Origin: Myxococcales bacterium
Lineage (GTDB): Bacteria > Myxococcota_A > Polyangia > GCA-2747355
Direction of reading: 5' to 3'
Assembly: GCA_020431405.1 (NCBI GenBank)
Contig: JAGQIK010000362.1
Location: 9,858-73,857 of the forward strand
Length of the DNA stretch: 64,000 bases
A program made the position numbers and the translations under genes. Below the pieces are notes generated by a model that saw only the letters and a list, made by a program, of their open reading frames with translations, was not told the origin of the DNA and did no database searches. This document shows, piece after piece, positions 1 to 61,918 of the stretch. The stretch's first letter is position 1. Every line of letters starts with the position of its first letter.

Positions 1-1
1 C

Positions 2-9651: not shown

Positions 9652-9727
9652 GGCGGTCCTCTTTGCACAGCTGGGGCCAGTCAAGCCAGCCTTAAATGCG
9701 TGAAATCGCGCAGGCCGGTCGGGTCAG

Positions 9728-10942: not shown

Positions 10943-11113
10943 AGGGTCGGGAGCCTATCACCCCTCAGATTTCCGACGAGCGCGCGCTGCCGCCGCGCGG
11001 AATTTTGACCTGCCGCCCCTCGAAATCACAGCGTTTGTCTGTGCCAGCGCGAAGGTACGGCGCTTGCTTTTTCAACAGCGATGGCACCTTACGAACGCTC
11101 AAGGGGGAAGGCG

Positions 11114-14419: not shown

Positions 14420-14500
14420 CACGCACGTCCTGCTAGCGAACAACTGACGCCCGCCACGTTTGCTCGGGGAAGACGTGGCGGGCGTCGTCTATGTGAAGCG

Positions 14501-15490: not shown

Positions 15491-15506
15491 CGCGCAGCGC
15501 CGATCG

Positions 15507-19899: not shown

Positions 19900-19903
19900 G
19901 CTA

Positions 19904-26253: not shown

Positions 26254-27042
26254 TCATTGCGTCTTACAGCTGGTGCCGTTGGGACAGCAGAGGTGGTAGT
26301 CGTAGCCGAGGCCGCTGATGAAGTTGAAGCACTCGAAGCCTGCGTCGCAGGGCGTCGTGTTGGCGCCGCCGGGATAGGTATCGCACGGGGCGCGGCACAC
26401 GCCGGTCCCCTGACCGCCGTCGGGCACGCAGCGGTGGGGGTATTCGCAGAGCTCGTCTGGGTCGTTGATGTTAAAGACGGCACATGCTTCGCCCAGCTTC
26501 TTGGGTCCAGTAAATGTGCAGGACTTCCCGCCGCTGGCCGGTGAACAGTAGCTGCCTGGCGGGCAGTTGCTGGCGTCGGTGCTCGTGCAATCGATGTTCT
26601 TGAAGCAGCCGGCGGAGAGCAGGTTGGGCGTAGGCAGCTTGATCTGAGTTCCGGCGCAGTCGCCGCCCTTGGTTGGCGACGGGACGCAGGTCTTGATGCA
26701 CGTGAAAATGAACTCGGTCGCTTCGAAGCAGACCTCGGTCGGCCCACAATCCGCGTCCGTGTTACAGCGCTTGCGGGGCACTGTGTGGAACGGCATCGGA
26801 GGCTCCCAGGTGTTGTCGAAGTAGCCGGTCTTCTCGAACTCCGCGCACGTCAGGGGCGTGAACACGTACGCGTCGGGCCGTGGCCCGTCGACGTCTGAGC
26901 CCACGTCCTTGGGCGGCGGTAGGTCGGGACGTAGGATGTCCAAAGCGGTGTCGCCGCGCAGCGGCGCCGCGCGTTTGTCACGATCGCAACCAGCGGCCAT
27001 GCTGATCACGACCGAGAGGAGCAGAATGCGGGACGCAACCAT
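26254..27042 (-). CDS. Cys-rich secreted lipoprotein (hypothetical).
   Basis: Lipobox ISMAAGC. About 28 Cys in 262 aa. Confidence 0.45.
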   Translation of the reverse strand: MVASRILLLSVVISMAAGCDRDKRAAPLRGDTALDILRPDLPPPKDVGSDVDGPRPDAYVFTPLTCAEFEKTGYFDNTWEPPMPFHTVPRKRCNTDADCGPTEVCFEATEFIFTCIKTCVPSPTKGGDCAGTQIKLPTPNLLSAGCFKNIDCTSTDASNCPPGSYCSPASGGKSCTFTGPKKLGEACAVFNINDPDELCEYPHRCVPDGGQGTGVCRAPCDTYPGGANTTPCDAGFECFNFISGLGYDYHLCCPNGTSCKTQ

Positions 27043-28694: not shown

Positions 28695-28717
28695 CGTCAG
28701 TCCTTTTGATTCGTCAT

Positions 28718-30850: not shown

Positions 30851-30867
30851 CGAGCAGCTACGAAGCG

Positions 30868-33447
30868 TTAGCTCAGCATCCGTGCGAGCAGCTCCTCGCA
30901 GCCTGTGACCTCGTGCCCCTCGTTGCCCATGAACTCGTCGACCTGCGACACGGAATAGCCTCGCTGCCGCATCTCGCAATACTGCGCGAGCTCTGGCGAG
31001 ATCTCGAACACGCGTAGGGTCAGCGCGGCGCGCATGCAGTACTGGTCGCCGCTGCGCCAGACAGAGTACGGATTGCTGGTGTTGATGGGTTCGGCTGGCG
31101 GACCGCACTGCTCTACCGCGTCGTCGAACGTCAATCCGGCGTTCGCGACGAAGGGAATAGAGATCTCGAAGTTGTCGGTTGGCGCGCCGTCCTGCATGTG
31201 ACGATGAAGGTCGATGTAGATCTCGTGGCCGGTGTGGAACGCTTCTACGACCATGCTGCGCGTTGCCCGACGCCGTTGCAGGTCACAAAACTGCTCCTCG
31301 GAAAGCGGCGCCGTACACAGGCAGCGCGAGCATCGCTCGAATGCGACGCACGACTCGCAGCCTCTGCGTGCGGTCGTCTCGTTCAGGATCCGCTCGAACG
31401 CCTGCCCTACGGCGTCCATGCTCGGCGTGGTGGCATCGACCAGACCGCAGCCGCTCATGCATGGCGAGAAGCGCCCGCTGTCGTCAGAAAGGGCGACGAC
31501 AAACCCTTGCGTCGAAGGGCAGGGCTCGGCCGCCCAGCGGCAGCTGTCCAAGAACAAGAACCACGATTCTGTCAGCCAGCCAGGCATTCTGAGGTAGCCG
31601 GTACGAGCCGCGCGCGCGTTGAGTCGATCAAATGCCTCGAGGTCGTGCTCGTTGGCGACATCCAACAGCCATATGCAGTAGCGGTTGGAGCTGCGTGGCA
31701 GCGTCGCGGGCGGCTCGTCGACAAGCTCGCCATCGCCGTTTTCGATGAGCCTGATGCTGATCGTGGGGCTGTCACAGACCGCGTTGAGCGGGTCCTCCTT
31801 GCCGCGTGGCGCCGGAGTCTCGCTCGAGCGAGGCTTGCCGCCGAGGACCGTGACGTGCAGCGGGCTTGCTTCGAGCCAGTGCTCGTACGTGCTCAGTGGC
31901 TGTTCGGCGAAGCGGAACATCGGCGCAGTCGCGGGGGCGATGTCCATCAACGGTGTCGGATTGGTGACGGAGGCAACGGCCGGCATCATCAGCGTGTCGA
32001 GGTCGAGCGTGGGAGCGTGCAGTAGCGTTCGAACGCCAGGGATGATCAGTCCAACCATAGGAGCCGGATCCCATCGGTTCTCTATGACCTCCCAGACGTC
32101 ACCGATGTCGTATTCGGCGTCATGGATCTGCAGCAGGCTCTTCTCGAGACGCGGCAGGTATTCGTCTCGCCGCTGGTCGAACAGGAGGAGCCCTGGCACT
32201 AGGGCCAGCAGATTCTGGTTGGTGTCGTCTGCGCCGATCGATTTGGCGAAGCGCACCGTTTCGCGAAACTCGTCTGCGCTTTGGTCGGGAATGCCAAACA
32301 TCATTCCGCAGCCAGTATGAAACCCGATCTCGTTTGCTGTCGTCACGACGCTGCGAAGGCGCTCGAGGTAGCCTTCTTCGCGCTTGTACTCGCCGTCGAT
32401 ACCTCTCTTGTGCACGACCTTGCCGAGACGACGTAGCGTTTCGGGCCCCGACGACTCGAGACCGAACGTCACCATGCGGAAGCCGGCATCAAAGAGGTGC
32501 TGCAGCATCTCGCCATTGATGCTCTCGGCTCGCGTCTCGAAGCCGAAGTGGAGCGCGAACTGTTCGGCAGCCATTCGGTCGAGCAGCTCGTCGAGCTTGC
32601 TCTTTGGTCGAGCGGTGAAGAGCAGGTCCATCAAGAACATGATCTTCAGCTCGTGAAGGCCGGTGGTCTTGTCGATTCCCCGGAAGAGGCCGTGGTCTGC
32701 TTCGCCGCGCTTGTCAGCCGCGACGAACACGTCGTTGATGTGGCTGAGATCGTCGATGACCCGGTCGGTGGAGAAGTAGCGCATGCTCGCGACGTAGTTT
32801 CTGCAGTGGCAGAACCCGCACTTGTACGCGCAGCCGATGGAGGTCGTGTAGTAGTACGGATGGTGTCCATCATCTGCGCCGTACTTCCAAGGCGGTGGGA
32901 TGATGTCGAGCTCGGCAAATCGCTCGCACGCTGGCCACGGCTCCGCTGGCGTCTCGACGTATTCGGCCCCCTTGGGCTCGGTTCGAAATACTAAGCTGCC
33001 GACGCGGTCGAGCAGCCCACGCTTGGCGTCGGCGCGTTCGAATAGCGCAAGCACGGACCAGTAGGGGTCGTAGCGAACGCAGGCGTCGAGCGGCGGGTTG
33101 TTGTCGAGGAACCAGGCAGGTTCGTGGGTCGCGTAGTCGCCCGACGCGATCTGCAGGATGTCCGGGCGACGCTCTCGCAACCCAGCGCCGAGCCATTTCA
33201 TCAGAAAATACAGCTGGGTTCCGGATGGTTGCCGGGGCGATTCGACGAAGAAGTGAACCACCTTGAGGTTGCGGTTCTCGCACAGCTCGTCGAGCAGCGC
33301 CCGTCTCGACTGGTGCAGCGACAGCACGACGCAGCCGGCTGTCCGGATCCCGCGGCTTTCGAGGATGCTTCGGCAGAAGCTCGCCTCGCGCAGACTGGCC
33401 GCGACGGTGCCGGCCCCGTCAGTAACTGCGAGGTATGTGCATGTCAT
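30868..33447 (-). CDS. B12-binding radical SAM enzyme with a C-terminal Cys-rich extension of about 350 aa.
   Basis: SIGCAYKCGFCHC (CxxxCxxC). An …FGLESSGPETLRRLGK… core. C-terminal CESCVAFERCSRCLC cluster (SPASM/twitch-like). Start is uncertain: ATG at 33447 or GTG at 33483. Confidence 0.65.
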   Translation of the reverse strand: MTCTYLAVTDGAGTVAASLREASFCRSILESRGIRTAGCVVLSLHQSRRALLDELCENRNLKVVHFFVESPRQPSGTQLYFLMKWLGAGLRERRPDILQIASGDYATHEPAWFLDNNPPLDACVRYDPYWSVLALFERADAKRGLLDRVGSLVFRTEPKGAEYVETPAEPWPACERFAELDIIPPPWKYGADDGHHPYYYTTSIGCAYKCGFCHCRNYVASMRYFSTDRVIDDLSHINDVFVAADKRGEADHGLFRGIDKTTGLHELKIMFLMDLLFTARPKSKLDELLDRMAAEQFALHFGFETRAESINGEMLQHLFDAGFRMVTFGLESSGPETLRRLGKVVHKRGIDGEYKREEGYLERLRSVVTTANEIGFHTGCGMMFGIPDQSADEFRETVRFAKSIGADDTNQNLLALVPGLLLFDQRRDEYLPRLEKSLLQIHDAEYDIGDVWEVIENRWDPAPMVGLIIPGVRTLLHAPTLDLDTLMMPAVASVTNPTPLMDIAPATAPMFRFAEQPLSTYEHWLEASPLHVTVLGGKPRSSETPAPRGKEDPLNAVCDSPTISIRLIENGDGELVDEPPATLPRSSNRYCIWLLDVANEHDLEAFDRLNARAARTGYLRMPGWLTESWFLFLDSCRWAAEPCPSTQGFVVALSDDSGRFSPCMSGCGLVDATTPSMDAVGQAFERILNETTARRGCESCVAFERCSRCLCTAPLSEEQFCDLQRRRATRSMVVEAFHTGHEIYIDLHRHMQDGAPTDNFEISIPFVANAGLTFDDAVEQCGPPAEPINTSNPYSVWRSGDQYCMRAALTLRVFEISPELAQYCEMRQRGYSVSQVDEFMGNEGHEVTGCEELLARMLS

Positions 33448-33507
33448 GGGGAATACAATACGACATCCCGCAGTAAGATCCACGCGCAGTGTGCGTCACA
33501 GAAAAAA

Positions 33508-35149: not shown

Positions 35150-35366
35150 GTTGATCCTCAGGTCGTGTGTGATCACCCATAGCAGCGCCTTAGGGTGGCA
35201 CAGAGCTCCGACTAGCTTTCGCTGAGGCGGTGCATCCCGAAGTCGTGTTCGAAGTACGGATCAGACTAGCATGGAAATACAGCCCGTAAAGGGGCAATCG
35301 CAGAAAAATTTGTCTGCTAGATTACGGACGATAGGCGGCGAGAAAGGAAGTCGCGCGCCTGGCGCA

Positions 35367-37662: not shown

Positions 37663-38670
37663 ATGGCGATAGTACCACAGTCCGATTCGCGCGCGCCGCT
37701 GGTCGCCGACATCATCGCGACGCTCTCAGCGGCCGCGAAGATGTCGCGAGCTCTGCAACAGGGGGTGGAGCGTTTGCGCGTCGCCCTCAAGGATGACCGC
37801 AGCCCGGTGACTGTCGCCGACCTCGCGGTGCAGGGACTCGTCGCAGCGCGACTCGCATCGAGCGAGGTGCCGATCGTCGGCGAAGAGCGCGCCGACCTCT
37901 TGCGTCGCGCTGAAGCCTCCGCGCTCACCGACGCTGTCGTCGACGCAGTCTCCGGTCCGGGAGGCTTGCCGATCGCACGTGCCGAGCTGCTCGAGGCGAT
38001 CGACTCGGCCTGCCACGATGGCAGTGCCGAGCGCTACTGGACGCTCGATCCCATCGACGGCACGAAGGGTTTCCTGCGTGGCCAGCACTACGCCATCGCT
38101 CTCGCGCTGATCGAGGGAGGCGAGGTCACCCTGGGAGCGCTGTGCTGTCCCAATCTCGGCGTCGACCCCAACGTCGTCGACTCGGCCGGGACGTTGTATG
38201 TCGCCCTGGCGGGCGCTGGTGCTTGGCAGCTGCCGGGCGGGGACGTCGAGCGTGCGGTACGGATCAAAGCCCGCTCGATCGCTTCGGGTGACGCGCTGCA
38301 GGTTTGCGAGTCGGTAGAGTCGGCACACTCGAAGCATGCCGACGCCGCTCGTATTGTGGCTCACGTGCCATTCGTCGCTGGCGAGCCAGTGCGCATGGAT
38401 AGCCAGTGCAAGTACGCGCTCGTCGCGCGTGGGGATGCCCACGCGTACCTACGCCTCCCCACGCGCGCAGACTACCGCGAGAAGATCTGGGATCACGCGG
38501 CGGGTTTGATCGTGGCTCGGGAGGCCGACGCAGTCGTCACCGACGTGCATGGGAAGGCGCTCGATTTCCGACATGGTCGGACACTCGAACAAAATCGCGG
38601 CGTGATCTGCGCCAGTCGCGGTGCGCATCAGCCCTTGGTTGATGCCTGCCAGCAGTTGGGCATTGGGTGA
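37663..38670 (+). CDS. 3'(2'),5'-bisphosphate nucleotidase (PAP phosphatase), CysQ/HAL2 / inositol monophosphatase family.
   Basis: WTLDPIDGTKGF metal-binding motif. About 335 aa. GAGGAGG Shine-Dalgarno before the ATG at 37663. Confidence 0.55.
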   Translation: MAIVPQSDSRAPLVADIIATLSAAAKMSRALQQGVERLRVALKDDRSPVTVADLAVQGLVAARLASSEVPIVGEERADLLRRAEASALTDAVVDAVSGPGGLPIARAELLEAIDSACHDGSAERYWTLDPIDGTKGFLRGQHYAIALALIEGGEVTLGALCCPNLGVDPNVVDSAGTLYVALAGAGAWQLPGGDVERAVRIKARSIASGDALQVCESVESAHSKHADAARIVAHVPFVAGEPVRMDSQCKYALVARGDAHAYLRLPTRADYREKIWDHAAGLIVAREADAVVTDVHGKALDFRHGRTLEQNRGVICASRGAHQPLVDACQQLGIG

Positions 38671-38713
38671 CGGTGGCCCCCACCTGTTGCGTTCCGAGCG
38701 TCCGACTACCACA

Positions 38714-39301
38714 ATGAGACGGATGCCATGGATGTCGCGGCAGACCGCCAGCGCCATAGTTTTCATGGCGTTGGCGTGCCCGTTGTGGGGCTGTGCCTAT
38801 TTCTTCGACGCGGACGCGACCACGCGCGAGTTTCGGCGGGCGTTGCGTCTGCAGCGGCGCGGCCACGACGAAGCGGCCCTCGTTGCCTACGGCGCGCTCG
38901 CGCCGCGCGCTCGCCGGCTCGAAGGCGCGCTCAACAACATGGCCCTGATCTTCGCACGCCGTGGCGACGTCGCTCGGGCCGAGCAGTTGCTGAGGCTCGG
39001 TACGCGTGTTGGCGCTAACAACTGCACCGTTTGGCTGAATCTGGGCCTCGTGCTCGCCACGCGCGGTCAGGTGCGCGAGGCGCGCTGGGCTTGGCAGCAG
39101 GTGCGCGCCGCGCGCGATCGTCTGCTCGACAGCGCGCCAGCGTCGCGCCATCAGATCTACACGTCGTCGATCATGCGGCGCAGCCATGCCGCGATCGCGC
39201 GCGCCGAACGCTATCTCAGGGGCACGCGCGCGAGCACGAGGCCGCGACGCGAGTCCTACGCGCTCGTCTTGCTAACGGCCCAGACTTCGACCTCGCAGTA
39301 G
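38714..39301 (+). CDS. TPR-like lipoprotein (hypothetical).
   Basis: Signal plus lipobox (FMALACPLWGCA). TPR-like helices. Confidence 0.35.
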   Translation: MRRMPWMSRQTASAIVFMALACPLWGCAYFFDADATTREFRRALRLQRRGHDEAALVAYGALAPRARRLEGALNNMALIFARRGDVARAEQLLRLGTRVGANNCTVWLNLGLVLATRGQVREARWAWQQVRAARDRLLDSAPASRHQIYTSSIMRRSHAAIARAERYLRGTRASTRPRRESYALVLLTAQTSTSQ

Positions 39302-41367
39302 TCGAAGAGGTCGGGTGTCGTCAGATCGATCGCGATCAGGTCGGAGACGTCGAGCATCCGAGCTGCTGCAGCACCGTCTTGTAGTGGCGAGAACCGAGGT
39401 CGACCACGGTCCACCGATCGCTCGCCCCTGCTGCCGTCGTACCTTGACAGATCGATGCCCTCGTCGTGCGCGAGCGCGAGCACATCGAGCTCTCGTTTCG
39501 CATTGTCGATGGCGCTTTGCAGCTGCTCGCCGCTTCCGGCAACGATGAGCTCGTCGCCGTCCGATCGCGCTATGCCCACCACGACGCACGTGTCGTCGAT
39601 CGCGACCAGCTCGGGCTCCGATACCCGTGTCGGCTGGCAGAGCCTGCCCCGACGTGTGCCGGCGAGCCATTGGCGACACACGTTCTGTTGCACCAGGCGC
39701 CGCGTCGCTGCTTCGATGGCGTCATCGGCAGATGTGCCCGCGGCGACAGCGCAGGCGAGTGGGCTTTCGAGACGGCGGCAAAGCTCCCTCGCGGTGATCG
39801 TGGTGAGGCTGCCGTCTACGATCGAGCGCGCTCGCACCATCGCCGTGCGGCGCTTGCCGACCTCCCCATGTGGCGCCCACTGCCGGGCGGCGTAGTCGGC
39901 GAGCGCGTCCAGCGCGGTTTGCTGCCAGCGCGCCTTCGCGTCGCTGCCTGCTCCTGCACCTCTCGCGCGCCCCTCCACGTCGAGGGTGTACATCCAGTAG
40001 CCGCGCCGTATCGCTGCAATGGACGCGATCGGCGCGCCTGGGCCACCGATCAGGCTCTTGATGCGGCGCACGAGGCCGCGGGACGTGCCCGCTCGCGCGA
40101 AAGTGCCCGCGTCACCGCGCCGCTTCGGCTGAGCTAGCGCGGCGATGTCGCCAGCGCTCTCGAATGCCGGTCCCTGTCCGCGGGGCCCTGACATGACCTG
40201 CGCGGGCGCCTTGGCCGCCGTCTCCTCGCGAACGTGACGAGCTAGCTGCTCGCGCGTCGCGAACACCTGCGGAGGATTGCATCGTCGACAACGCGGGTGG
40301 GGTAGAAGCGGCCTGGGAAACCCCATCGAGCCGGGATCGCTCTCCACCACACCCAGCGCGCGCCGAAAGTACATCATTCCCGGCGATCTGGAGCAGTAGC
40401 GAGACGCGTACATGGTCATCAGCAAGGCGTTGATGTGGGCGATGCCGTGGGCGCTGCGGCGCAGATCGTCAGGGTGCTGACAGTGCGCCTCGTAGCCCGC
40501 GACGACACCTGGCAGGCGCAGCAGCGTACATTCGAGACAGACCGCTGTGCGATCGAGCGCGACTCCGATCAGCAGCTCGGAGCCGACGAGCACCGAATAG
40601 AGGTAGGGCGAGTCGCCAAGTCGGCGACCGTAGCGCATCGCCACCTCTGCCGTGCTGCTGTCATAGCCTTCGAAGGCGAACAACGTCAGAGGTTTGTTCT
40701 GATCTCGATGGCGCTCCGGCGCGATGTCGCTGTCGCCGACGTCGTGCAGGCTCAACGTCAGCTCGCCGCGCGTCGAGGCGAGCCGCGCCGCGTAGCGGGC
40801 GCAGCTATTGTGGTCGCCGGCGCCGGCCACGCCCGAACAGATCCAGCGCACCCGTCGCGCTCCATAGCGAGCGAGCACGTCGAGTAGCTCGCGCGCGATC
40901 ACACCGTCTCCGAGCACGTGCAGCTCCGTTGTTGCCAAGAGCTCGGAGATGCGCGCCGCCGGCAGCAAGTACGAGCGGTACCCCCGACCGCAGGTGTGCG
41001 GATGAGCGACGAGCAGGACGAGGCCGGCGTCGATCAATAGCTCGAGCGCTTCACGACCAGCTGCGTCGGGCACCGCCTCCTCGGCGGTGCGCGTGCCGTC
41101 ACAACGACGGAGCACTCGCTGTAGGACGTCGCTTTCGATGAGCTCGTGATCGACGGTGACGACTCGTCCGTCATCGAGCGCGACATTGGCTGTGGGCAGC
41201 TCGATCCAGCGCAGGTGATCGAGTCGGCACGGCACGAGGGGACGATGCGCCGGCTGAAAGGCGGAGCTGCGCTGCTGCAGGCTCAGCAAAACGCCGCACC
41301 ACTCGGCTGGAGGCAAACCACCCGCGAACTCGATGGGGGGAACCCACCAGCGACGATGCAAAGCCAT
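39256..41367 (-). CDS. Hypothetical protein whose N-terminal half is paralogous to the RRE/E1-like domain of the YcaO fusion at 28718..30850. The C-terminal half is uncharacterised and may be a degenerate YcaO-like region.
   Basis: Shares the winged-helix/RRE-like pattern, a Rossmann-like HVLGDGVIARELLDVLARYG, and the CLEC motif (compare CFEC). The C-terminus GAGAGSDAKARWQQTALDALADYAAR lacks the ELLERD Mg-ATP motif. Confidence 0.4.
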   Translation of the reverse strand: MALHRRWWVPPIEFAGGLPPAEWCGVLLSLQQRSSAFQPAHRPLVPCRLDHLRWIELPTANVALDDGRVVTVDHELIESDVLQRVLRRCDGTRTAEEAVPDAAGREALELLIDAGLVLLVAHPHTCGRGYRSYLLPAARISELLATTELHVLGDGVIARELLDVLARYGARRVRWICSGVAGAGDHNSCARYAARLASTRGELTLSLHDVGDSDIAPERHRDQNKPLTLFAFEGYDSSTAEVAMRYGRRLGDSPYLYSVLVGSELLIGVALDRTAVCLECTLLRLPGVVAGYEAHCQHPDDLRRSAHGIAHINALLMTMYASRYCSRSPGMMYFRRALGVVESDPGSMGFPRPLLPHPRCRRCNPPQVFATREQLARHVREETAAKAPAQVMSGPRGQGPAFESAGDIAALAQPKRRGDAGTFARAGTSRGLVRRIKSLIGGPGAPIASIAAIRRGYWMYTLDVEGRARGAGAGSDAKARWQQTALDALADYAARQWAPHGEVGKRRTAMVRARSIVDGSLTTITARELCRRLESPLACAVAAGTSADDAIEAATRRLVQQNVCRQWLAGTRRGRLCQPTRVSEPELVAIDDTCVVVGIARSDGDELIVAGSGEQLQSAIDNAKRELDVLALAHDEGIDLSRYDGSRGERSVDRGRPRFSPLQDGAAAARMLDVSDLIAIDLTTPDLFDYCEVEVWAVSKTSA

Positions 41368-41447
41368 CGGACCTAACGAGCGCTAGACTGATCTATAGTA
41401 GCGACGATTCGGGAAATACTGCCCGTCACTCAAGTGCGAGTCAAATC

Positions 41448-43067
41448 ATGCCGATCGCCGATGCATGCGCAGCGTGGGCCGCTGCGCTCGCGCCAGACCG
41501 AGTCTCGCGCGACGCCAACGTCGTAGCGAAGTATGGGCGATCGACGTTGGTCGAAGCACCGCAACCGCTGGCCGTGCTGCGACCGACCTGCCGCGACGAG
41601 GTTGTCGCCGCCGTCAAGATCGCGAGCCAGCACGCGGTGCCGCTCTACCCGATCAGCCGGGGACGAAACTGGGGTTTGGGGGCAGCCTGTCCGCCGACGG
41701 CGGGGCAAGCCGTGCTCGACCTGAGCCTCATGAACAAGATCGTCGAGGTCAACGAGGAGTTGGCCTATGCGGTGATCGAGCCCGGGGTAACCCAGGGGCA
41801 GCTCGCCGAGTATCTGGACGACAACGAGATCGACTTGATGCTCGATTGCACCGGGGCGGGGCGCGACGTGAGCATCGTCGGAAACTGCCTCGAACGTGGT
41901 GACACCTTCGGCGTGTACGCAGACCGGTTCTTGCATTGCTCGGCGTTGGAAGTCGTCTTGCCCAACGGGGACGTGATCACCACCGGCCTCGGTCATCTCG
42001 ATGCGGCCGCGACAAACCTCTACAAGTGGGGAGTTGGACCATCGCTCGACGGGTTGTTCAGCCAGTCGAATTTCGGCGTTGTGACGCGGCTGACATTGGA
42101 GCTGATGCCGGAGCCGGAGACGATGTCGGTCTATTTCTTCGGCGTCGAAGACGAACAGCTTGAAGACCTCATCGAAGCGCTTCGGCCGCTGCGCTTGTCT
42201 GGCGTCATACACACGGCGCTGCACCTGGCCAACGACTACAAGGCGCTGGCCGCCATGGAGTTCTATCCGTGGGACGAGACCAATGGCCAGACGCCGCTGC
42301 CCGAGTCGGTGCGTCGCCGCATGCGCGCGCGGTACCCGTTCATTCAGGGCTGGATTGGCAACAGCGCGTTCTATGGCACCCATGACCAGGTGCAAGCTCA
42401 GCAACGGGAGCTGAAGCGGGCGCTGCGCGGGATCACGCGAGTGCAGTTCGTCACCCCGAGGAAGCTCGAGTGGGGGCTGCGCGCACTTCGTGTGCTCGCG
42501 CGCACCAGGCTGCCAGTGGTCGATCGGTTGGGTACGTTGGTCGAGCGTGCGCGGACGATGCTCACGTTGATGGCCGGGATCCCCAGCAACAACACACTGC
42601 TCGGAACTCAGTGGCGGTTGCGCCGAGAGCCGCACGAGGAGTCGCTGGACCCGCTCGACAATGGCATCGGTATGTACTGGTTCGCGCCGATCTGTCCGCT
42701 TACTGGAGAGCACGTACGAAGGCTGCAGCGTTTGATCGAGGAGATCTCGGCGGAGTACCAGTTCGAGCCGATGCTCAACCTTACGTTGCTGACCGGGCGG
42801 GCAGCGCTGCTGACGAATGTCGTGCTCTACGATCGCGACGATGCGAGCGAGAGAGAGCGCGCGGCGCGCTGCAACAACGCATTGGTCGAGCGCGGGATCG
42901 CCGCCGGCTATCCGCCGTTTCGCTGCAGCATCGATTCATTTCGACACCTCGGCGCGAACGACTCACCGTACTGGCGATTCGTGCGGCAACTGAAGCGTGC
43001 GGCGGATCCGGAGGGCGTTATCGCTCCCGGCCGATACTCGCCGTGGGTCTTCCACGACGCGAGCTAG
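41448..43067 (+). CDS. FAD-binding oxidoreductase (PCMH-type FAD-linked oxidase family).
   Basis: N-terminal FAD-binding region (…AVLRPTCRDEVVAAVKIASQHAVPLYPISRGRNWGLG…). 539 aa. Confidence 0.55.
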   Translation: MPIADACAAWAAALAPDRVSRDANVVAKYGRSTLVEAPQPLAVLRPTCRDEVVAAVKIASQHAVPLYPISRGRNWGLGAACPPTAGQAVLDLSLMNKIVEVNEELAYAVIEPGVTQGQLAEYLDDNEIDLMLDCTGAGRDVSIVGNCLERGDTFGVYADRFLHCSALEVVLPNGDVITTGLGHLDAAATNLYKWGVGPSLDGLFSQSNFGVVTRLTLELMPEPETMSVYFFGVEDEQLEDLIEALRPLRLSGVIHTALHLANDYKALAAMEFYPWDETNGQTPLPESVRRRMRARYPFIQGWIGNSAFYGTHDQVQAQQRELKRALRGITRVQFVTPRKLEWGLRALRVLARTRLPVVDRLGTLVERARTMLTLMAGIPSNNTLLGTQWRLRREPHEESLDPLDNGIGMYWFAPICPLTGEHVRRLQRLIEEISAEYQFEPMLNLTLLTGRAALLTNVVLYDRDDASERERAARCNNALVERGIAAGYPPFRCSIDSFRHLGANDSPYWRFVRQLKRAADPEGVIAPGRYSPWVFHDAS

Positions 43068-43073: not shown

Positions 43074-44945
43074 TCAGAGCACGCAGTTGAGGCGAATGGT
43101 GCGGATCACGCGGCGCAGGATCTGATAGAGCAGCGTGGTCTTGCCGCCATCGATCCGGGCGACACCGGTCATGTCTGGACGAAGGAGCCGCTTGGGGTTG
43201 CTGACGCGGCTGCGTACGACGAGGTAGCGCTTCTTGGTGGTGCTGTCGACCTCGACCTTCGCAGCGATCGCCACGACTTTTCCGGTGAACGATCGCTCCG
43301 GCATGCTCGTCACCTTCAACTCCACCGGCTGGCCAACCTTGATGATGTCGAGGTCCTCCTCGGCGACCTTTACCTCTACATCCATCGTGCTCGAGTCGGC
43401 CACTTCGAACAGCGTTTCGCCTTTCTGAACGCGACTGCCTAGCCTCTCTTTGAGCTTTCGAGTGACGATCGTGCCTTCGATGGGGCTGTAGACCATCGTT
43501 CCCTTGAGCTGGTCCTCGACGAGACGGCGTTTTGCGACCAGCGCGTCACGTTTGGCAGCGAGCTGGGCGAGCTCTTCCGGCGACGGCTTCTTGGTCAACA
43601 CCGAAAGCCGTGCACGCTGCTCCGCTGCCGCCGCCTGACGTTGCCGAAGATCGTCGGTGCAGGTTCGTAGCTTGTCGCGCGCTACCACGCCTTGCCGCAC
43701 CAGCCGTCGCAGGCGTCTGCACTGACCGCGTTTGATGCGCACCGCCAACAACTTGGATCTGACCTCACGCCACGCGCTGACCCGTTCTTCCTTGGTCGCG
43801 CCGCGCTTGAGCCGCTTGATCTCCGCGTCTACCGCCGCGATCTCGGCTACCCCCGACTGCAGCTGTCGCTCGAGATCCGTCTTGTCGAGCTTCACCACGA
43901 GCTCGCCCTTCTTGACACGCTCGCCCTCGCCTTTGAGAACCTCGCCGATCAGCCCGTCGATCGTCGGCCGCACGGCCCGGCGCCTAGCGGGGCGTAGTGT
44001 ACAGTCGTGCTTGGCGCTCAGCTGCACTGGGATGAGCGACGCGATCAGCGCCAGCACGCCGACGACGCCTAGCCGTATTCCCCACTTGAGCAGGCGTCGG
44101 CCAATGGACGGCTTGGGTAGGTGTGACCCAGCCGGTGGCACCGCGTCGTCCTCGTCGTCCTCTTCTTCTTCGTCGTCTTCTTCGTCGTCCTCGTCGTCGT
44201 CTTGCTCGTGCGCGCCGATCTCTCGCATCAGCTCGGATTGCATCGCCTCGAGCGAGGTGGCTCCGCGTCGGCGCATCTCGCCGTTGATGATCTCGAGCAT
44301 CGAGCGGGCCTCGACGTTTTCGGGGTCGAGCTCGATCAGGGCCTTGAGGTAGCGAATCGCCTCGATGACGAGGCCTTGCTTGTACATGACGAGCGCGGCG
44401 TTGAACATCCGCCGGCTCTCGGCGCGCCACGCTGATTCGACGCTGCGTTGCTCCGCGCGGACCATTTCCGTGTGAGGCGGCTCGGGGACCTCGCGGAACG
44501 CATCGTCGCGCATACCGAAGTCGGCCATGCGTGCGTCGAAACGGCGCCGGCCCGCGTCCCGGAGTTGCTGGTCGTGTTCGCCCTCGTCGTCGTCCCACTC
44601 GTGGCCCGTCGTGGCGGACAGGATCGTGTCGTCGTCGTCGTCGTCGTCCCACTCGTTCTCGGGTGCGGTGAACTCCGTGGGCGCAGCAAGGTCGAGGGCG
44701 CCGATGGCGGCTAGCCTCTGCACCACGAACTCGATTTCCGTGGCCTTTAGCGCGATAGAGTGTGCATGCGCAGCTTGCAGCAGCTGGGGCAGGCTCGTTC
44801 GACCATCTAGCTGCCGGGCGAGAAACGCCAAGCGCTTGTCGGCGGAGATCGACTGCTGCGTGTCGAGGTTGCGTACTTCGACGAGGTTGCCATTGAGAAC
44901 AACCCGCGCTCGCTCGCTCAGTTTGGGTTGCGTCGAGTCACCCAT
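43074..44945 (-). CDS. HlyD-family membrane-fusion / secretion adaptor protein with an acidic low-complexity N-terminal region.
   Basis: Biotin-lipoyl-like, coiled-coil and beta-barrel segments (…VVKLDKTDLERQLQ…YSPIEGTIV…). DDDEDDEEDDEEEEDDEDD run. Confidence 0.55.
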   Translation of the reverse strand: MGDSTQPKLSERARVVLNGNLVEVRNLDTQQSISADKRLAFLARQLDGRTSLPQLLQAAHAHSIALKATEIEFVVQRLAAIGALDLAAPTEFTAPENEWDDDDDDDTILSATTGHEWDDDEGEHDQQLRDAGRRRFDARMADFGMRDDAFREVPEPPHTEMVRAEQRSVESAWRAESRRMFNAALVMYKQGLVIEAIRYLKALIELDPENVEARSMLEIINGEMRRRGATSLEAMQSELMREIGAHEQDDDEDDEEDDEEEEDDEDDAVPPAGSHLPKPSIGRRLLKWGIRLGVVGVLALIASLIPVQLSAKHDCTLRPARRRAVRPTIDGLIGEVLKGEGERVKKGELVVKLDKTDLERQLQSGVAEIAAVDAEIKRLKRGATKEERVSAWREVRSKLLAVRIKRGQCRRLRRLVRQGVVARDKLRTCTDDLRQRQAAAAEQRARLSVLTKKPSPEELAQLAAKRDALVAKRRLVEDQLKGTMVYSPIEGTIVTRKLKERLGSRVQKGETLFEVADSSTMDVEVKVAEEDLDIIKVGQPVELKVTSMPERSFTGKVVAIAAKVEVDSTTKKRYLVVRSRVSNPKRLLRPDMTGVARIDGGKTTLLYQILRRVIRTIRLNCVL

Positions 44946-47289
44946 TTCTTCGAGGCACGATCAGGCTAACAGACGTAGGGCCTGGGGCAATCCAGCGCTC
45001 CGCGGCGGCGGCAACGTCGGCTGCCTTCGTCGACCGCAGTCGCTCGATCCAACGACCTGGGCTCAATTGCGCTGAACAGGTCTCTCCGAGAGCCAGCCAA
45101 CTGCTCGCGGTGTCGGGAGAAGACATCGTCGCGACCACGTTTCCGACCGCCCGCGCCCTGGCAAGCTCGATCTCTTTGGTGTGCTCGGCTGCCTCGACAG
45201 CGGCTTCGAGCACGCTCCGCGTCTCCTCGTACACCTCGTGTGGCTGCGCCGGCGTTATCGCAGTGACCAGTAGACAGCCACCCTCGGCGGCACAAATGTA
45301 TTCGGCGCGAATGTCGTACACGAGGCCGAGCATATTGCGCACGCGTTCAAAGAGCCAACCCGATTCGCCACCGAGTAGCCTGCAGAACAGCTCGCATGCG
45401 CTCGCCTCTGCGTCGCCGAGCGTCGGCATCGCGAAGCCAACAGCGACGAAGCCGAGCGGCAGGAAGGGAGATTGCACCACCCGGGGCCGCCAGCTCGGGG
45501 TTCCGAGCACGGTGCGAGCTCGTCGCGTAGGCGATACAGGGTCCAGCGTGAGCTCGGCCAGCTCGCTGCGCTCTTCAGTCGTCACGGCCATGCCGCTGAT
45601 GGCGATGATCGGTGACCGTCCGCTCCATTGGACGGTGCAGTCGCCGAGGGCACCGCGGATGACGGACGCTCGCTGCTCCTCGCGAGCGACCTGTGGCGTG
45701 ACCTCGGCAGGCAGGTCGCTGTCGAGGAGCTCTGCGACGCGAGTGACCAGGTGACGTACCCTCTCGGGCGTGTCGCCATGGCAGCGGGTCGTTACCACCA
45801 GGCCGTGGTGTTCGAGCGTGACGCTCGTCAGTGGATCGCACAGGCCCTCTTCGAAGAGCTCTCTCGCGCGCACCGAGGCATCCCAACTGCCAAACACCCC
45901 CGTAGGAATGACGGCCTCGATGCTCGACGTCATCGACGCGAACGACTCGAGCGGCGCGTAGATGATGCCGTTCTCGAGCCGCTCGACCTCGGGCAGCGCG
46001 CTTCGAACCTTCGGCGGCGGTCTCCGTTTCGCGGCGGCGAGCGGGGGCGTGTGCGGCTCGGGCGTGAGCTGCACCTGAAGTGCGCGCTCTTGTGCAAGGT
46101 ACGCGCTCGTCGTCAGCCGTAGCTCCTCGGCGCCCAGCGATCGCAGGCGCGCCAAGTCGTGCCAGGGCCGCAAAGGCTCGTGGTGAGTCACGATCGCGTC
46201 ACCGAGCCACGCGGGGACGTTGACCGCGTCCAGTGACGTCATCTGCTCGATCTCGCAGGTCCTTCGAAGGTCGTCGATGTCGAAGGTCTCGATGAAGCGC
46301 TCGGGAAGGCTGCGCAGCCGTCTCATTTCGCTGCGCGGGTCGGAAGTGCCAGGCCCGATCAGAACGAAGAGGCTCGAGCCTTTGCGCGGAATATGCACGC
46401 CGAGGGTCTGCGGCGAGCTGTTCGCCAGCAGCTGCCCGATCCCGCGTGCTGCCACCGACAACGGCAGAGATGCGGGCGAGCGCACATCGGGCAAGACCCA
46501 GGCGGCGGCGAGCTGCGGAAACGCACGAGGTGTGCGGCCATCGATGCTCGCGCCGGGCGGGTCTACAGCGAGTCTGTGATGTCGAATGTGGGGCGAATCG
46601 TCGACCTCTGGTCGGGCTCGTGAGCCGCTGAAACAACGCGCTAGCGACTTGGCGTCGACGGGCCCCGCGGCGACGACGACCGTGCGCGAGGGACTGACGA
46701 CGTAGCCGTGAAGGTCGCGAAGCACCGACGCGGAGACGCCTTCCACCGTCTCGCGTGCCCCCAGTGGATCAAACCGATATGGATGACCGTGGGGGTAGAG
46801 TGCGCGTCGGACGGCAAGCACCACAGGGCGCCACAGCTCGCCTTCGCTCTCCATCAGCTCGGCGATGATCACACGTCGCTCATCGCGAACGTCCCCGGCG
46901 TCGATGGTCGGCCACAACGTGTGGTCGGCTAGCACCCTCGCCGCCTCGTGCGTGTGGGCGGCGGGCACCTTGACGGACGTGGCCATCAGATCGAACGCCG
47001 TGAAGGCCTGCACCGTGCCGCCGAGCGCTTCGATCTCGTCGCTGAGGTACCCCGAGCGCCGCGTGGACCCCAAGAACAGCATATGTTCGAGAAAGTGCAG
47101 CGTGCCTGGCGAGCGCTCGACGCACGTGCCGACACTCGACACGATGCCGACGCAAGCGACGGGAAGTGTGCAGGGCAGGACGATCACGCGTAGGCCCGAA
47201 TCGGTCACTGCGGTATCGAGGGTTACGCGAGTGCCAACGAGCGATCGGGACATGCGCCTCAGCATACGGGATGCGCTGGGTGCGTACAC
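44938..47289 (-). CDS. M16-family zinc peptidase (insulinase/pitrilysin-like), a double-domain protein.
   Basis: Inverted zinc motif HFLEHMLF (HxxEH). 783 aa. Start overlaps the upstream gene. Confidence 0.7.
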   Translation of the reverse strand: MYAPSASRMLRRMSRSLVGTRVTLDTAVTDSGLRVIVLPCTLPVACVGIVSSVGTCVERSPGTLHFLEHMLFLGSTRRSGYLSDEIEALGGTVQAFTAFDLMATSVKVPAAHTHEAARVLADHTLWPTIDAGDVRDERRVIIAELMESEGELWRPVVLAVRRALYPHGHPYRFDPLGARETVEGVSASVLRDLHGYVVSPSRTVVVAAGPVDAKSLARCFSGSRARPEVDDSPHIRHHRLAVDPPGASIDGRTPRAFPQLAAAWVLPDVRSPASLPLSVAARGIGQLLANSSPQTLGVHIPRKGSSLFVLIGPGTSDPRSEMRRLRSLPERFIETFDIDDLRRTCEIEQMTSLDAVNVPAWLGDAIVTHHEPLRPWHDLARLRSLGAEELRLTTSAYLAQERALQVQLTPEPHTPPLAAAKRRPPPKVRSALPEVERLENGIIYAPLESFASMTSSIEAVIPTGVFGSWDASVRARELFEEGLCDPLTSVTLEHHGLVVTTRCHGDTPERVRHLVTRVAELLDSDLPAEVTPQVAREEQRASVIRGALGDCTVQWSGRSPIIAISGMAVTTEERSELAELTLDPVSPTRRARTVLGTPSWRPRVVQSPFLPLGFVAVGFAMPTLGDAEASACELFCRLLGGESGWLFERVRNMLGLVYDIRAEYICAAEGGCLLVTAITPAQPHEVYEETRSVLEAAVEAAEHTKEIELARARAVGNVVATMSSPDTASSWLALGETCSAQLSPGRWIERLRSTKAADVAAAAERWIAPGPTSVSLIVPRRNG

Positions 47290-47307
47290 GTATGGCGAAA
47301 CAAAGCG

Positions 47308-49914
47308 CTACATCACACGCCAGAACGTCAGCGAGAAAAAGCGCCGCAGCGGCCGCAGGAAGAGCACGAGCAGCGGCTCGGGTCGGCAAAGGACCTTGCC
47401 AGTGCCGCTAATTCCCGGACGCACCCAGCGCGGAGCATCGACGAGGCGGACGCGTATTGGCAGATCGGTGACTTTGAACCGCTTGCGCTCCACCTGCTTG
47501 ATGGAGTGCGCCAAGCGCGGAGCGAGCTTGTCCACGGTGCCCTTGACGTGGCGCCCGTCTCCGACCTGCAGCACCATGCGCACGGCTAGTCCTCGCCGCA
47601 GGCCGAACAGCTGCTGATCTTCTTCGAGCTTGAGTATCGCGTGCATCGACGACGACAGCTCGAACAGCTTGGTGCCCGGCTCGACCCAGCGTCCGAGCTG
47701 CTCCTCGGGGCGCGTGGTCGTCACGATGCCAGCCGAGGGGGCTCGCACGACCAGCGCGCGCTGCCTGATCGACAGGCGTTCCCGCTTTGCACGATAGCTG
47801 GCGCACTTCGCTTTCTGGGCTGCGACCAGCGCGGGGTTGATGGCCAGGCGTGCTCCGCGAGCGGCCGCCGCCTTGGCCACGCCGGATGCTGCTACCCGCG
47901 AGCTGTCGAGCAGCGCGCGCAGGTCCTCGCGCGGAATCACCGAGGCGAGCTTGCGCGAGCGACGAAGCTTCTCCGCCGCCGAGCGCGCTTTGACATTGGC
48001 GCGGGCAAGCTTGGTGAGCTCCAGCAGCCGCTCTGCGGCCGTCGCGCCGCGGCGAAGCTGCGCGAGCTTCGCTTCGCACTGCCGTGTTTCGGCGGCGGCC
48101 TGCTGGATGTTGGCAGCCAGGGTCGGGTTTTCCAGGCGCACCAGCACCTGTCCCTTGACCACCTTCGCGCCCTCCTTGGTTTTGATCGCCACGACCCGCC
48201 CCTCGACCGTCGCGCTGACGCTATGTGTCGTGTGCTCGATGCGCACCGTCCCGGTGATCATCGGTGACACGTCGACGAGGTAGAACGCCGCAGCGTCGAT
48301 TCCCAGCCATACCAACACGAGCGATGCCAAGCGCAGCCGATTGGCCCACGACTTCTGCTTGAGCGGAGCGAACGTCTCCTTGAGCAGTGAACCGAGGATC
48401 TTGAACAGAAGAAACAGCACCAGCGCGACGCCCAAGCCACCGAAGAAGGGAGTCAGCAGTCCCCACAATGATCCGGCGATACGGACGAGCCACAGGGTGC
48501 GGAACACCAGCGTCGCCACGCCCAGCGCGAGAAGGAGCGTCGCGACGCGCTGCGCGGTCGGTCGCAACGCGCCAACGAAGATCAGCGCGGACACCCCCAT
48601 GCAAGCCGAGATCGCGATCGATACCACGAACATTCCGCGGTTGACGGCCAGAGCGATCAGCAACGGCAGGATCACGAGGTTTGTCAGACCTAGCACGCAG
48701 AACGCGCGGAACGGTCCCGCGCGATAGGCGCGAGTCAAGGGTATGAGGATGCGCCGCTGCAACGCGGCTGTCGCGTCTTTGCTGAGCGATCGCAGATCGA
48801 GCATCCCGGCGAGCACGTGCTGGCCGTCGAGCGGTAGCAAGGGAACGAACTGAAACAGCGAAACGACGCCGGAGACGCTGGCGAGCGCGATGAAGTAGTT
48901 GTGAAGAAGCCCAGGTGCAGTGACGTACCACCCGATGGTCGCCACGATCCACAGGTTGACGGTGATCCAGACGCCGGCGGCCGCGGTGACGACCTTGCCC
49001 TTCCTGCTGAAATGGTGAGCATCGCTCACGTCGCAATAGGCGGCGGGGAGCACGTACATGATCAACATCAGCCCCATGCTCGAAGGACGGCCGCCGAAGT
49101 GCACCGCGGCCAACCCGTGGCCGAATTCGTGAACCACGAGCATGGTGAACATCGCGCCGATGAACAGACCGAACTTCGGCGCGCTCCACGAGGACTGGAA
49201 GAACTCCGCGTAGCGCGTGTAGTCGGCGTAGTAGAGCATCGCGCAGATGGTCGTAGCGACCACCCACACTGCGACCCACCAGCGGCTGAAGAGGAACTTC
49301 GTCGGCTGGTACAGCCGCTGGAGCATCGCTGTGGGGTTGATCAGGTGGAACGTTGGGAATGGAGCTTTGGGCTTGGGCCCCGTCTCGACGACGGCGTCGT
49401 TCAACAGCGTGATGGCTGTGCTGACACGCTCGTTGGACGGATTGACCTCCGCCGCCACGATCAGGCAGCGCGCCGCTTCCACCGGGTCTTGCTTGTTCAG
49501 CCAATCGGCCGCGCGCCACAGAAACGTCAGATCGTCTCGTTGCTCGTTTGCGACGCGTCGAAGTATGCCCGCCTTCTTCCACTTCTTGAGGGCTCTGCGA
49601 GCCGCCTTCGCACGCTCGCGTGAATCCAGCTGGTCCAGCGAGGCGGTGACGAGCAGTCGGCGTCGCTTGAGGACCTCGATGAATTTCCAAAGGTCTCGGG
49701 CGGAGACCCAGGCGTCATACTTGTCACCTAGCGTTTCGGCTATCTCGTCGACGGTACGCTTGCCGTCGAGGTGACGCAGAACGTCAGCCTGGAAAGGGCC
49801 GAGCTCCAAACGCACGTCCGAGATCGGGTCCTTGACGACGAAGGCCCGCCCTTGGTCGACAGGGTGGATTTCGATATCTGGGCGGAGCTCGGGTAGGCTG
49901 ATCTGTTGCGTCAC
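47308..49914 (-). CDS. M50 (site-2 protease family) membrane metallopeptidase fused to a HlyD-like periplasmic adaptor domain.
   Basis: HEFGHGLAAVHFGG within TM helices. The C-terminal 350 aa are HlyD-like (coiled coil plus beta-barrel). GTG start. Confidence 0.55.
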   Translation of the reverse strand: MTQQISLPELRPDIEIHPVDQGRAFVVKDPISDVRLELGPFQADVLRHLDGKRTVDEIAETLGDKYDAWVSARDLWKFIEVLKRRRLLVTASLDQLDSRERAKAARRALKKWKKAGILRRVANEQRDDLTFLWRAADWLNKQDPVEAARCLIVAAEVNPSNERVSTAITLLNDAVVETGPKPKAPFPTFHLINPTAMLQRLYQPTKFLFSRWWVAVWVVATTICAMLYYADYTRYAEFFQSSWSAPKFGLFIGAMFTMLVVHEFGHGLAAVHFGGRPSSMGLMLIMYVLPAAYCDVSDAHHFSRKGKVVTAAAGVWITVNLWIVATIGWYVTAPGLLHNYFIALASVSGVVSLFQFVPLLPLDGQHVLAGMLDLRSLSKDATAALQRRILIPLTRAYRAGPFRAFCVLGLTNLVILPLLIALAVNRGMFVVSIAISACMGVSALIFVGALRPTAQRVATLLLALGVATLVFRTLWLVRIAGSLWGLLTPFFGGLGVALVLFLLFKILGSLLKETFAPLKQKSWANRLRLASLVLVWLGIDAAAFYLVDVSPMITGTVRIEHTTHSVSATVEGRVVAIKTKEGAKVVKGQVLVRLENPTLAANIQQAAAETRQCEAKLAQLRRGATAAERLLELTKLARANVKARSAAEKLRRSRKLASVIPREDLRALLDSSRVAASGVAKAAAARGARLAINPALVAAQKAKCASYRAKRERLSIRQRALVVRAPSAGIVTTTRPEEQLGRWVEPGTKLFELSSSMHAILKLEEDQQLFGLRRGLAVRMVLQVGDGRHVKGTVDKLAPRLAHSIKQVERKRFKVTDLPIRVRLVDAPRWVRPGISGTGKVLCRPEPLLVLFLRPLRRFFSLTFWRVM

Positions 49915-57503: not shown

Positions 57504-57511
57504 GCACGCGT

Positions 57512-61861: not shown

Positions 61862-61918
61862 CCAACGCTAGCAGGGGTTTGCTGCAAGCGTGCGATCGCC
61901 GATAATGGCGGGGACTCT

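Follow-up and report, generated by a model that had tools for sequence, protein, structure and literature searches.

A Myxococcales orphan protein homologous to the leader-binding half of fused YcaO cyclodehydratases

The window described here is a stretch of 64,000 nucleotides from a Myxococcales metagenome-assembled genome (MAG; assembly GCA_020431405.1, contig JAGQIK010000362.1) with a GC content of about 65%. It encodes a protein of 703 amino acids, p703, the N-terminal half of which is, as judged by sequence comparison, homologous to the leader-peptide-binding half of the fused YcaO cyclodehydratases and contains a putative four-cysteine metal site. One cyclodehydratase of this kind, P0002, is encoded 10 kb away. 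The explanation to which we would give slightly better than an even chance is that p703 is a paralogue of P0002, specific to its lineage and fast-diverged, and that it serves, if it is functional, as a scaffold. The features on which this explanation is based are as follows.

39256 to 41367, minus strand: the p703 gene, coding for a 703-residue orphan protein with an RRE-like segment (RRE, recognition element of peptides that ribosomes make and that are modified after translation, RiPPs), an E1-like domain, a linker and a degenerate C-terminal domain (open reading frame list, codon-position GC)
40993 to 41220, minus strand: winged-helix/RRE-like segment of p703, residues 50-125 (three strands followed by three helices)
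40249 to 40977, minus strand: E1-like (ThiF-fold) domain of p703, residues 131-373, lacking nucleotide-binding motifs (hhalign, BLASTP)
40528 to 40539, minus strand: CLEC, residues 277-280, first half of the putative structural zinc site (aligned cysteine pair)
40279 to 40290, minus strand: CRRC, residues 360-363, second half of the putative zinc site (aligned second CxxC)
40048 to 40248, minus strand: linker of p703, residues 374-440, rich in Ala, Gly, Pro and Arg, with no confidently predicted structure (sequence)
28718 to 30850, minus strand: P0002, the fused RRE/E1-like/YcaO cyclodehydratase of 710 residues with intact catalytic motifs, paralogue of p703 (Pfam, NCBIfam)

The N-terminal half of p703

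When p703 and P0002 are compared directly by BLASTP, a single alignment rises above the noise. It matches residues 236-330 of p703 to residues 162-256 of P0002 (248-342 in the numbering of the 796-residue open reading frame, ORF) with 29% identity over 98 residues and a pairwise E-value of 4e-5, and it is centred on the CLEC motif of p703 and the CFEC motif of P0002. A family profile was assembled from 99 fused cyclodehydratases, comprising P0002-P0009 and 91 further full-length proteins from 80 genomic loci. Residues 1-400 of p703 match the RRE/E1-like part of this profile in hhalign over residues 85-373, which cover both CxxC pairs, with a Prob of 86% and an E-value of 5.6e-6. The score of this match is 50.8, as opposed to a mean of 15.0 (SD 2.8, maximum 30.0) for 300 shuffled sequences, corresponding to a z-score of about 12.7. 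A hidden Markov model (HMM) domain match to the same half has an E-value of 4.5e-6 over residues 253-382, and the full-length hhalign alignment is collinear over residues 40-698 (Prob 72%, E 3.5e-5). The best BLAST partner of p703 among the 99 family members is P0002, with 33 bits against 26.9 bits for the runner-up, which fits an in-genome paralogue. A preliminary description of this DNA had proposed that the two proteins share a winged-helix-like segment, a Rossmann-like segment and the CLEC/CFEC motif, and had suggested pairwise and HMM-HMM alignment as a check; the BLASTP and hhalign comparisons bear the proposal out.

The CLEC and CRRC pairs of p703 fall on cysteine columns with a conservation of 97% or more among 98 fused cyclodehydratases. 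The arginine three residues past CLEC is also retained, and the four cysteines together with this arginine show a conservation of 95% or more across the family. The four equivalent cysteines of McbB hold a purely structural zinc ion, and the RRE and E1-like domains form the leader-peptide clamp in McbB, as they do in LynD and TruD (PMC6395948). The helices of p703 at residues 85-125 are aligned by hhalign with the N-terminal domain of the fused cyclodehydratases. Both AlphaFold2 runs give the same order of strands and helices for residues 50-125, at low confidence, and this segment has no Pfam PqqD match.

It is highly improbable that the E1-like half of p703 is catalytically active in the manner of MccB/ThiF and adenylates the C terminus of a peptide. 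The combination of an RRE with an E1-like domain carrying a zinc site is found in MccB as well, and MccB is the top Foldseek match of the low-confidence p703 model; the TM-scores for that model, however, are only 0.12-0.20. The glycine-rich loop and the D.D..NL.RQ segment are motifs of ThiF and MoeB. In p703 only GDGVIA is left of the loop, the segment is absent, and neither Pfam ThiF (PF00899) nor any NCBIfam model matches at E <= 10, which sets p703 apart from ThiF, MoeB and MccB. The E1-like domain of the cyclodehydratases binds no nucleotide. It is this cyclodehydratase type with which the p703 domain aligns, and there the E1-like domain merely resembles an adenylation domain, and it is the YcaO subunit that binds the nucleotide (PMC6395948).

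The reading frame of p703 has 703 codons at 39256-41367 on the minus strand. The GC contents of its three codon positions are 0.71, 0.53 and 0.78, the third being the highest along the entire length, and this pattern of GC3 > GC1 > GC2 throughout indicates that p703 is coding and a real gene. Its counterpart at NCBI, KC503_25170, is a hypothetical protein of a Myxococcales MAG that has 619 residues and begins at V85. The start at V85 drops the winged-helix strands at the N terminus of p703, whereas the 703-residue form, which starts with an ATG preceded by a weak AGG, keeps them. The 3' end of the gene is overlapped by 46 bp, tail to tail, by a 226-residue ORF at 38621-39301 on the plus strand (GC3 0.81), which likely encodes a TPR lipoprotein with a signal peptide ending in LWGC; a 216-residue ORF antisense to it, at 38537-39187, has a GC3 of 0.63 and is not coding.

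No relative of p703 was found in any of the collections searched. A word-indexed search of 5.8 billion proteins returned p703 itself as the sole match, and a full phmmer search of 1.84 billion representatives returned nothing beyond it. The PDB sequences gave no match, nor did Pfam and NCBIfam at E <= 10 with the entire protein or with either half. No relative was present in the genome contigs or the JGI metagenome contigs, and no p703-like ORF was found within 10 kb on each side of 80 other fused-cyclodehydratase loci. The genome contigs searched were those of GTDB representatives, a set that does not include the source genome and in which exact peptides of the adjacent gene are missing.

P0002 itself matches Pfam YcaO with an E-value of 1.4e-44 as well as TIGR03604 and TIGR03882, and its family profile matches TruD, LynD and MusD with E-values of 1e-133 to 1e-151. 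The alignment with proteins of the TruD/LynD type begins at the N terminus, showing that P0002 has kept its own leader-binding region. It retains E369, E372 and R373 as well as E479, E482, R483 and D484, and has only distant relatives, with about 25% identity. The longest ORF of this gene, 28718-31108 on the minus strand, reaches 86 codons further upstream, into the end of a radical SAM (rSAM) gene; the start at 30850 (MQTYRL...) gives exactly the 710-residue NCBI protein.

The C-terminal half of p703

The C-terminal domain of p703 probably derives from a YcaO domain, although here the similarity is far weaker than in the N-terminal half. Part of the probability that we assign to a YcaO origin comes from the prior expectation, because an E1-like domain of the cyclodehydratase type so often precedes a YcaO domain. 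The segments concerned are the following.

39259 to 40047, minus strand: C-terminal domain of p703, residues 441-703, about 260 residues, a possible degenerate YcaO remnant (hhalign score 27)
39649 to 39750, minus strand: core resembling the YcaO motif AAGxSxEEAI..ELVERDA..W, residues 540-573, AVAAGTSADDAIEAATRRLVQQNVCRQWLAGTRR (hhalign core, MAFFT, block position-specific scoring matrix p = 0.03)
39307 to 39345, minus strand: motif resembling YcaO v.v.D.T.pD, residues 675-687, SDLIAIDLTTPDL (alignments, block position-specific scoring matrix p = 0.009)
39883 to 39960, minus strand: stretch flagged in the preliminary description, residues 470-495, GAGAGSDAKARWQQTALDALADYAAR (YcaO motif 1 score, p = 0.98)

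Residues 421-703 match the YcaO-domain profile in hhalign with a score of 27.0-27.5 (P 0.004-0.006, Prob 6-8%). This score was reached by none of 400 plain shuffles (maximum 25.1), none of 300 shuffles in blocks of 12 (maximum 26.2) and none of 106 real 283-residue segments taken from other proteins of the window (maximum 22.5). The signal is confined to a confident core of 34 residues (540-573, AVAAGTSADDAIEAATRRLVQQNVCRQWLAG) and to residues 675-687. In the core, AVAAGTSADDAIEAATRRLVQQNVC-RQWLAG is aligned with the YcaO signature G.AAG.s.EeAi.qG.LElVERDAv..wW. MAFFT, independently, places residues 542-562, 609-628 and 677-687 of p703 on YcaO motifs, VAGSGEQLQSAIDNAKRELD (609-628) being aligned with GfGAh.D...Al.rAl.EL, and LIAIDLTTPDL (677-687) with v.v.D.T.pD. 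In an ungapped block test, motif 2 (p = 0.03) and the DxTxPD block, motif 4 (p = 0.009), are found in the correct order, while the best match of the third YcaO block in p703 coincides with the position of motif 2.

If there was a YcaO origin, every charged ATP/Mg2+ ligand of the ELxERD motif has been replaced. At the aligned positions the E, E, R and D of the enzyme are R, Q, Q and N in p703, and the first EAxERY/ExxER motif has no significant counterpart. Compared with P0002, several of the segments between the motifs are shorter by 30-40 residues. The C terminus is ...DLTTPDLFDYCEVEVWAVSKTSA, 16 residues after DxTxPD, and the protein thus lacks the PGL segment and the Pro-rich tail, which in McbD and LynD enters the active site (PMC6395948). 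No YcaO-like remnant was found downstream of p703 in any frame. If residues 441-703 are a YcaO remnant, ATP-dependent amide activation by p703 would be impossible.

The preliminary description had suggested an inactive YcaO-like C-terminal half, on the basis of a GxGxGS...ALxxLADYAAR stretch at the place of the YcaO ELLERD. This stretch, residues 470-495, is the best spot for motif 1 (GKG...A..AL.EA.ERY), and it scores below the mean of shuffled sequences, so that the assignment has to be abandoned; MAFFT places motif 1 at residues 441-458 instead. The more general suggestion finds weak support in a signal (P about 0.005) that lies in another segment, residues 540-573, in two motifs standing in the correct order, and in a chain from which the catalytic residues and the tail have gone.

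A number of results speak against the YcaO origin and, with it, against the explanation of p703 as a diverged scaffold paralogue. The hhalign score of the C-terminal half is equalled by 3 real segments out of 560 drawn from unrelated proteins at the 80 loci, giving an empirical p of about 0.005, and the confident core is only 34 residues long. Neither motif 1 nor the W/SL block is significant in the ungapped block test. In hmmsearch --max with an HMM of the 99 YcaO sequences p703 has an E-value of 6, amid random ORFs and hence in the noise, and Pfam YcaO (PF02624), TIGR03882 and TIGR03604 are silent even at E <= 10. When p703 is compared with 15 control family profiles, which cover these 15 families only, the cyclodehydratases come first with a narrow lead (23.8 as opposed to 22.2). 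Structure prediction, which had been proposed as a check, gave an AlphaFold2 pLDDT of 37.5 from the single sequence and 36.5 with a nine-sequence multiple sequence alignment (MSA) of YcaO fusions, and at this confidence of about 37 the fold of the C-terminal half cannot be read. The orphan status of p703 means that there is no homologue to show purifying selection, no precursor peptide gene was found among ORFs of 25-130 residues that lie between 22 and 55 kb and are not part of called genes, and the scaffold function is something that we only infer.

Two further measures were tried and set aside. Identities at 61 conserved YcaO columns number 17, which equals the expectation from shuffled sequences (mean 16.3) and, far from supporting a YcaO origin, counts against it. 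A Foldseek search with the MSA-based p703 model returned MccB, Uba1, TruD, LynD, McbB and YcaO at TM-scores of 0.1-0.2, but this model is biased by its MSA and the result is uninformative.

It is therefore possible, though on balance unlikely, that only the N-terminal half of p703 comes from a cyclodehydratase, residues 441-703 being unrelated or new and the likeness to YcaO motifs a product of chance in an Ala/Gly-rich sequence. The HMMER noise, the chance-level identities, the two silent motif blocks and the three unrelated segments with equally high scores would all be expected in that case, and the domain has about 260 residues compared with about 400 for YcaO. Nevertheless, the P of about 0.005 belongs to just one hypothesis, which had been fixed beforehand. 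The segments that match correspond to the two motifs most characteristic of YcaO, and they stand in the correct order after an E1-like domain, as in TruD and LynD.

The loss of all catalytic residues and the truncated C terminus could also mean that p703 is simply a decaying duplicate of the cyclodehydratase gene, drifting without a role and still open by chance or because its function was lost recently. We regard this as unlikely. Apart from these losses, decay would agree with the absence of any homologue among 15 billion proteins while the paralogue P0002 has distant relatives, with the low-complexity Ala/Arg/Gly-rich linker in a protein containing 11% Arg overall, and with the location of the gene outside the RiPP operon, parted from the RiPP genes by an oxidase gene on the opposite strand. 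However, the frame is open over all 703 codons with its codon-position pattern intact, the four zinc cysteines and the following arginine are retained, and there are no frameshifted YcaO remnants downstream. The source lineage is moreover poorly sampled, and even the active YcaO protein has only relatives of about 25% identity; the orphan status is thus a weak sign of decay.

If p703 is a scaffold paralogue of P0002, its RRE/E1-like clamp would still fold and would bind a leader peptide through the RRE. The C-terminal part would be a dead, shortened YcaO remnant without the ATP and Mg2+ ligands and without the tail. As a non-catalytic subunit, p703 might then hand the substrate to other enzymes or associate with the active YcaO fusion. 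The context of the gene supports this explanation, since the adjoining operon encodes two HlyD adaptors and an M16 peptidase as well as a HExxH intramembrane protease fused to PqqD.

Should the C-terminal half be a YcaO remnant kept for binding, it would qualify as a YcaO pseudoenzyme and would extend the theme of the inactive E1-like scaffold, known from McbB and the F proteins of thiazole/oxazole-modified microcin (TOMM) systems, to the catalytic domain. In the library searched, no literature describing an inactive YcaO, or pairing YcaO with "pseudoenzyme" or "catalytically inactive", was found; a proven pseudo-YcaO would be new, and the present support is well short of proof. The N-terminal half illustrates that RiPP recognition domains can outrun the curated models and yet stay detectable by profile-sequence comparison (HH-suite), which bears on genome mining. 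The practical value is limited, p703 being a single orphan sequence from one MAG.

The divergent flavoenzyme and the neighbouring genes

A flavoenzyme gene is transcribed divergently from p703, and an operon that likely serves RiPP processing and export lies beyond it.

41368 to 41447, no strand: intergenic region of 80 bp between the divergent p703 and flavoenzyme genes (sequence)
41448 to 43067, plus strand: flavoprotein of the vanillyl alcohol oxidase (VAO)/PCMH family, 4-phenol oxidoreductase-like, 539 residues (Pfam, PDB phmmer)
43074 to 49914, minus strand: adjacent operon with a likely part in RiPP processing and export (family matches)

The flavoprotein matches Pfam FAD_binding_4 with an E-value of 1.7e-23. 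In phmmer searches of the PDB it matches over its full length vanillyl alcohol dehydrogenase (VAD) of Marinicaulis flavus (E 1.6e-73), PCMH (3e-69), VAO (1e-47) and the eugenol oxidase entries, some of which are deposited as "probable vanillyl-alcohol oxidase" (about 1e-57 to 1e-60). The earlier identification of a PCMH-type FAD oxidase divergent from p703 is thereby confirmed. A scan of the 80-bp gap for a consensus promoter found nothing, and no relatives of the flavoprotein were found in the genome contigs or the metagenome contigs.

Several residues characteristic of the family have been replaced in the flavoprotein. In VAD, His387 is the covalent flavin link (PMC7617285). When the two proteins are aligned, His387 corresponds to Met409, Pro151 to Ala137, the Tyr of NxxYGG to Leu77 and the Tyr of YR to Phe491, while Arg492 is kept. 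Pro151 of VAD is the N5 site, which sets oxidase or dehydrogenase behaviour. We take the Tyr/Arg site of the alignment to be that of Tyr108, Tyr503 and Arg504, which bind the phenolate in VAO. The flavoprotein thus lacks the covalent His, the flavin link of the oxidases and VAD, where PCMH has a Tyr link instead, and it lacks the complete Tyr-Tyr-Arg phenolate site; no cytochrome c subunit gene lies beside its gene. Because the phenolate Tyr positions are replaced, the protein may not use a free phenolate as the family usually does; its substrate may be non-phenolic or a peptide.

The preliminary description had seen in p703 and the oxidase a pair reminiscent of azoline-to-azole dehydrogenation modules, with the reservation that such modules normally use FMN-dependent McbC-like enzymes. 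That p703 is a recognition subunit delivering an azoline peptide to the adjacent FAD oxidase, in place of FMN-dependent McbC or SagB, is scarcely credible and is not supported by the present results. The two genes are indeed divergent and only 80 bp apart, no McbC/SagB-type nitroreductase domain was found among the ORFs of the window that were scanned, and an enzyme without phenolate-holding residues may have a substrate other than a simple phenol. However, the flavoprotein has the FAD_binding_4/VAO fold and not the FMN nitroreductase fold of McbC and SagB, and the chemistry of the VAO/PCMH family, which proceeds through the p-quinone methide of 4-alkylphenols (PMC7617285; also established knowledge of the family), differs from azoline dehydrogenation. 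At none of the 80 fused-cyclodehydratase loci does a VAO/PCMH-type gene occur within 10 kb, and no literature linking RiPPs to vanillyl alcohol oxidase was found in the library searched. Adjacency in one genome is no evidence of a functional link, and a functional tie between p703 and the flavoenzyme is not supported.

A more elaborate proposal, which we consider very unlikely, is that p703 is a full-length pseudo-cyclodehydratase of the RRE/E1/YcaO fold, kept by selection as a non-catalytic adaptor that recruits a ribosomal peptide to the VAO/PCMH flavoenzyme. The flavoenzyme would then oxidize the benzylic carbon of a tyrosine, a 4-alkylphenol, via a quinone methide, the M16 and HExxH proteins would process the peptide and the HlyD proteins would take part in its export. 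If true, both the tailoring chemistry of the RiPP and the pseudo-YcaO scaffold would be without a described example so far.

The operon at 43074-49914 lies upstream of p703, and the flavoprotein gene sits between the two, on the strand opposite to both. The operon encodes an 868-residue fusion of PqqD/RRE, a HExxH intramembrane protease and HlyD (47308-49914, minus strand; daptide_HExxH E 1.7e-33), the protease being of the daptide and YydH/LiaK type, a 783-residue M16 peptidase (44938-47289, minus strand) and a 623-residue HlyD/TPR adaptor (43074-44945, minus strand). The RRE part of the cyclodehydratase profile matches residues 15-136 of the 868-residue protein with an E-value of 4.6e-5 and, weakly, residues 37-106 of the 623-residue adaptor (domain E 0.02). 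A third leader-binding domain may thus be present in the locus, at the N terminus of the adaptor.

P0002 belongs to a separate operon (27153-33483, minus strand), in which the gene of the YcaO fusion is flanked by those of an rSAM protein of 871 residues on one side and a B12-binding rSAM protein of 581 residues on the other. Downstream of it are genes for a Cys-rich 262-residue lipoprotein (26254-27042), a Pro/Ala-rich lipoprotein and a TonB-dependent receptor. Genes for OmpA-like, PilZ, inositol monophosphatase and TPR-lipoprotein products stand between the two clusters. The only unassigned small ORF between 23.5 and 51.7 kb is a 35-residue, Ser/Thr/Cys-rich frame with a TTG start (LPLYGLYFHASLIRTSNTTSGCTASAKASRSSVPP; 35190-35297, minus strand; GC3 0.57), situated in the 190 bp that separate the OmpA-like gene from a lipoprotein gene. 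No other precursor-like candidate is present, and this one is probably non-coding.

The composition of the window is not uniform. GC3 is mostly 0.88-0.93 in the genes of the first 15 kb (1-15500) and 0.72-0.85 in the RiPP-like region (23000-50000), with values of 0.78 for p703 and 0.72 for the YcaO fusion. Between 16 and 24 kb, where there are two sulfotransferase genes (18832-20983), the GC content falls to 58-61%. These contrasts in GC3 and GC along the window suggest a compositionally distinct island, possibly acquired. A few kilobases from the RiPP-like locus there is a run of shikimate-pathway genes, some of them unusually fused (56543-63235, plus strand), coding for a dehydroquinate synthase with a 350-residue N-terminal extension, a dehydroquinase-shikimate dehydrogenase fusion, an EPSP synthase-shikimate kinase fusion and a chorismate synthase.

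Comparison with known systems

The flavoprotein can be compared with the 4-phenol oxidoreductases VAD (8S7N), PCMH (1DII), VAO (1VAO) and eugenol oxidase (5FXD), which it matches over its full length, including FAD_binding_4, and from which it differs by the replacements of the covalent His, the proline and the two tyrosines described above and by the lack of a neighbouring cytochrome c gene. ThcOx and the oxidase domain of PatG provide a precedent for the idea of a recognition domain, derived from a cyclodehydratase, that is coupled to an oxidase (PMC6395948). In ThcOx, however, the oxidase has the FMN nitroreductase fold and is part of the same chain, whereas here it is a separate FAD protein of the VAO/PCMH fold encoded on the opposite strand; the C-terminal half of p703 gives no nitroreductase signal.

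The fused cyclodehydratases of the PatD type, represented by TruD (4BS9), LynD (4V1T) and MusD (7U58), share with p703 the domain order over the whole length, an RRE-like winged helix-turn-helix and an E1-like domain with two CxxC pairs. Segments resembling YcaO motif 2 and DxTxPD are also found in p703. Unlike these proteins, p703 is not matched by TIGR03882, TIGR03604 or PF02624 and has no detectable orthologues. Its counterparts of the ATP and Mg ligands are replaced, its C-terminal half is about 140 residues shorter and the Pro-rich tail is absent.

The role inferred for p703 is like that of the TOMM F proteins, or Ocin-ThiF-like proteins (HcaF, TbtF; IPR022291, TIGR03693), which are non-catalytic E1-like/RRE paralogues that bind the leader for a separate YcaO protein (PMC4603692). 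A scaffold precedent with the same role is the micrococcin protein TclI (PMC10634744). In F-protein systems the partner cyclodehydratase is truncated at its N terminus and lacks an RRE of its own (PMC4603692), whereas the YcaO fusion of the window keeps its full N-terminal domain, and p703 stands 10 kb from it rather than adjacent to it. TIGR03693 is silent on p703 (NCBIfam, E <= 10). With no match to this model and no truncated partner, p703 cannot be assigned to the F-protein family.

Unlike p703, McbB of the microcin B17 synthetase (6GOS/6GRG) lacks a YcaO-like extension at its C terminus, and its gene shares an operon with those of McbC and McbD. In its N-terminal architecture p703 nevertheless resembles McbB, in which an RRE and an E1-like domain with a structural four-cysteine zinc site serve as a leader clamp and have no catalysis of their own (PMC6395948).

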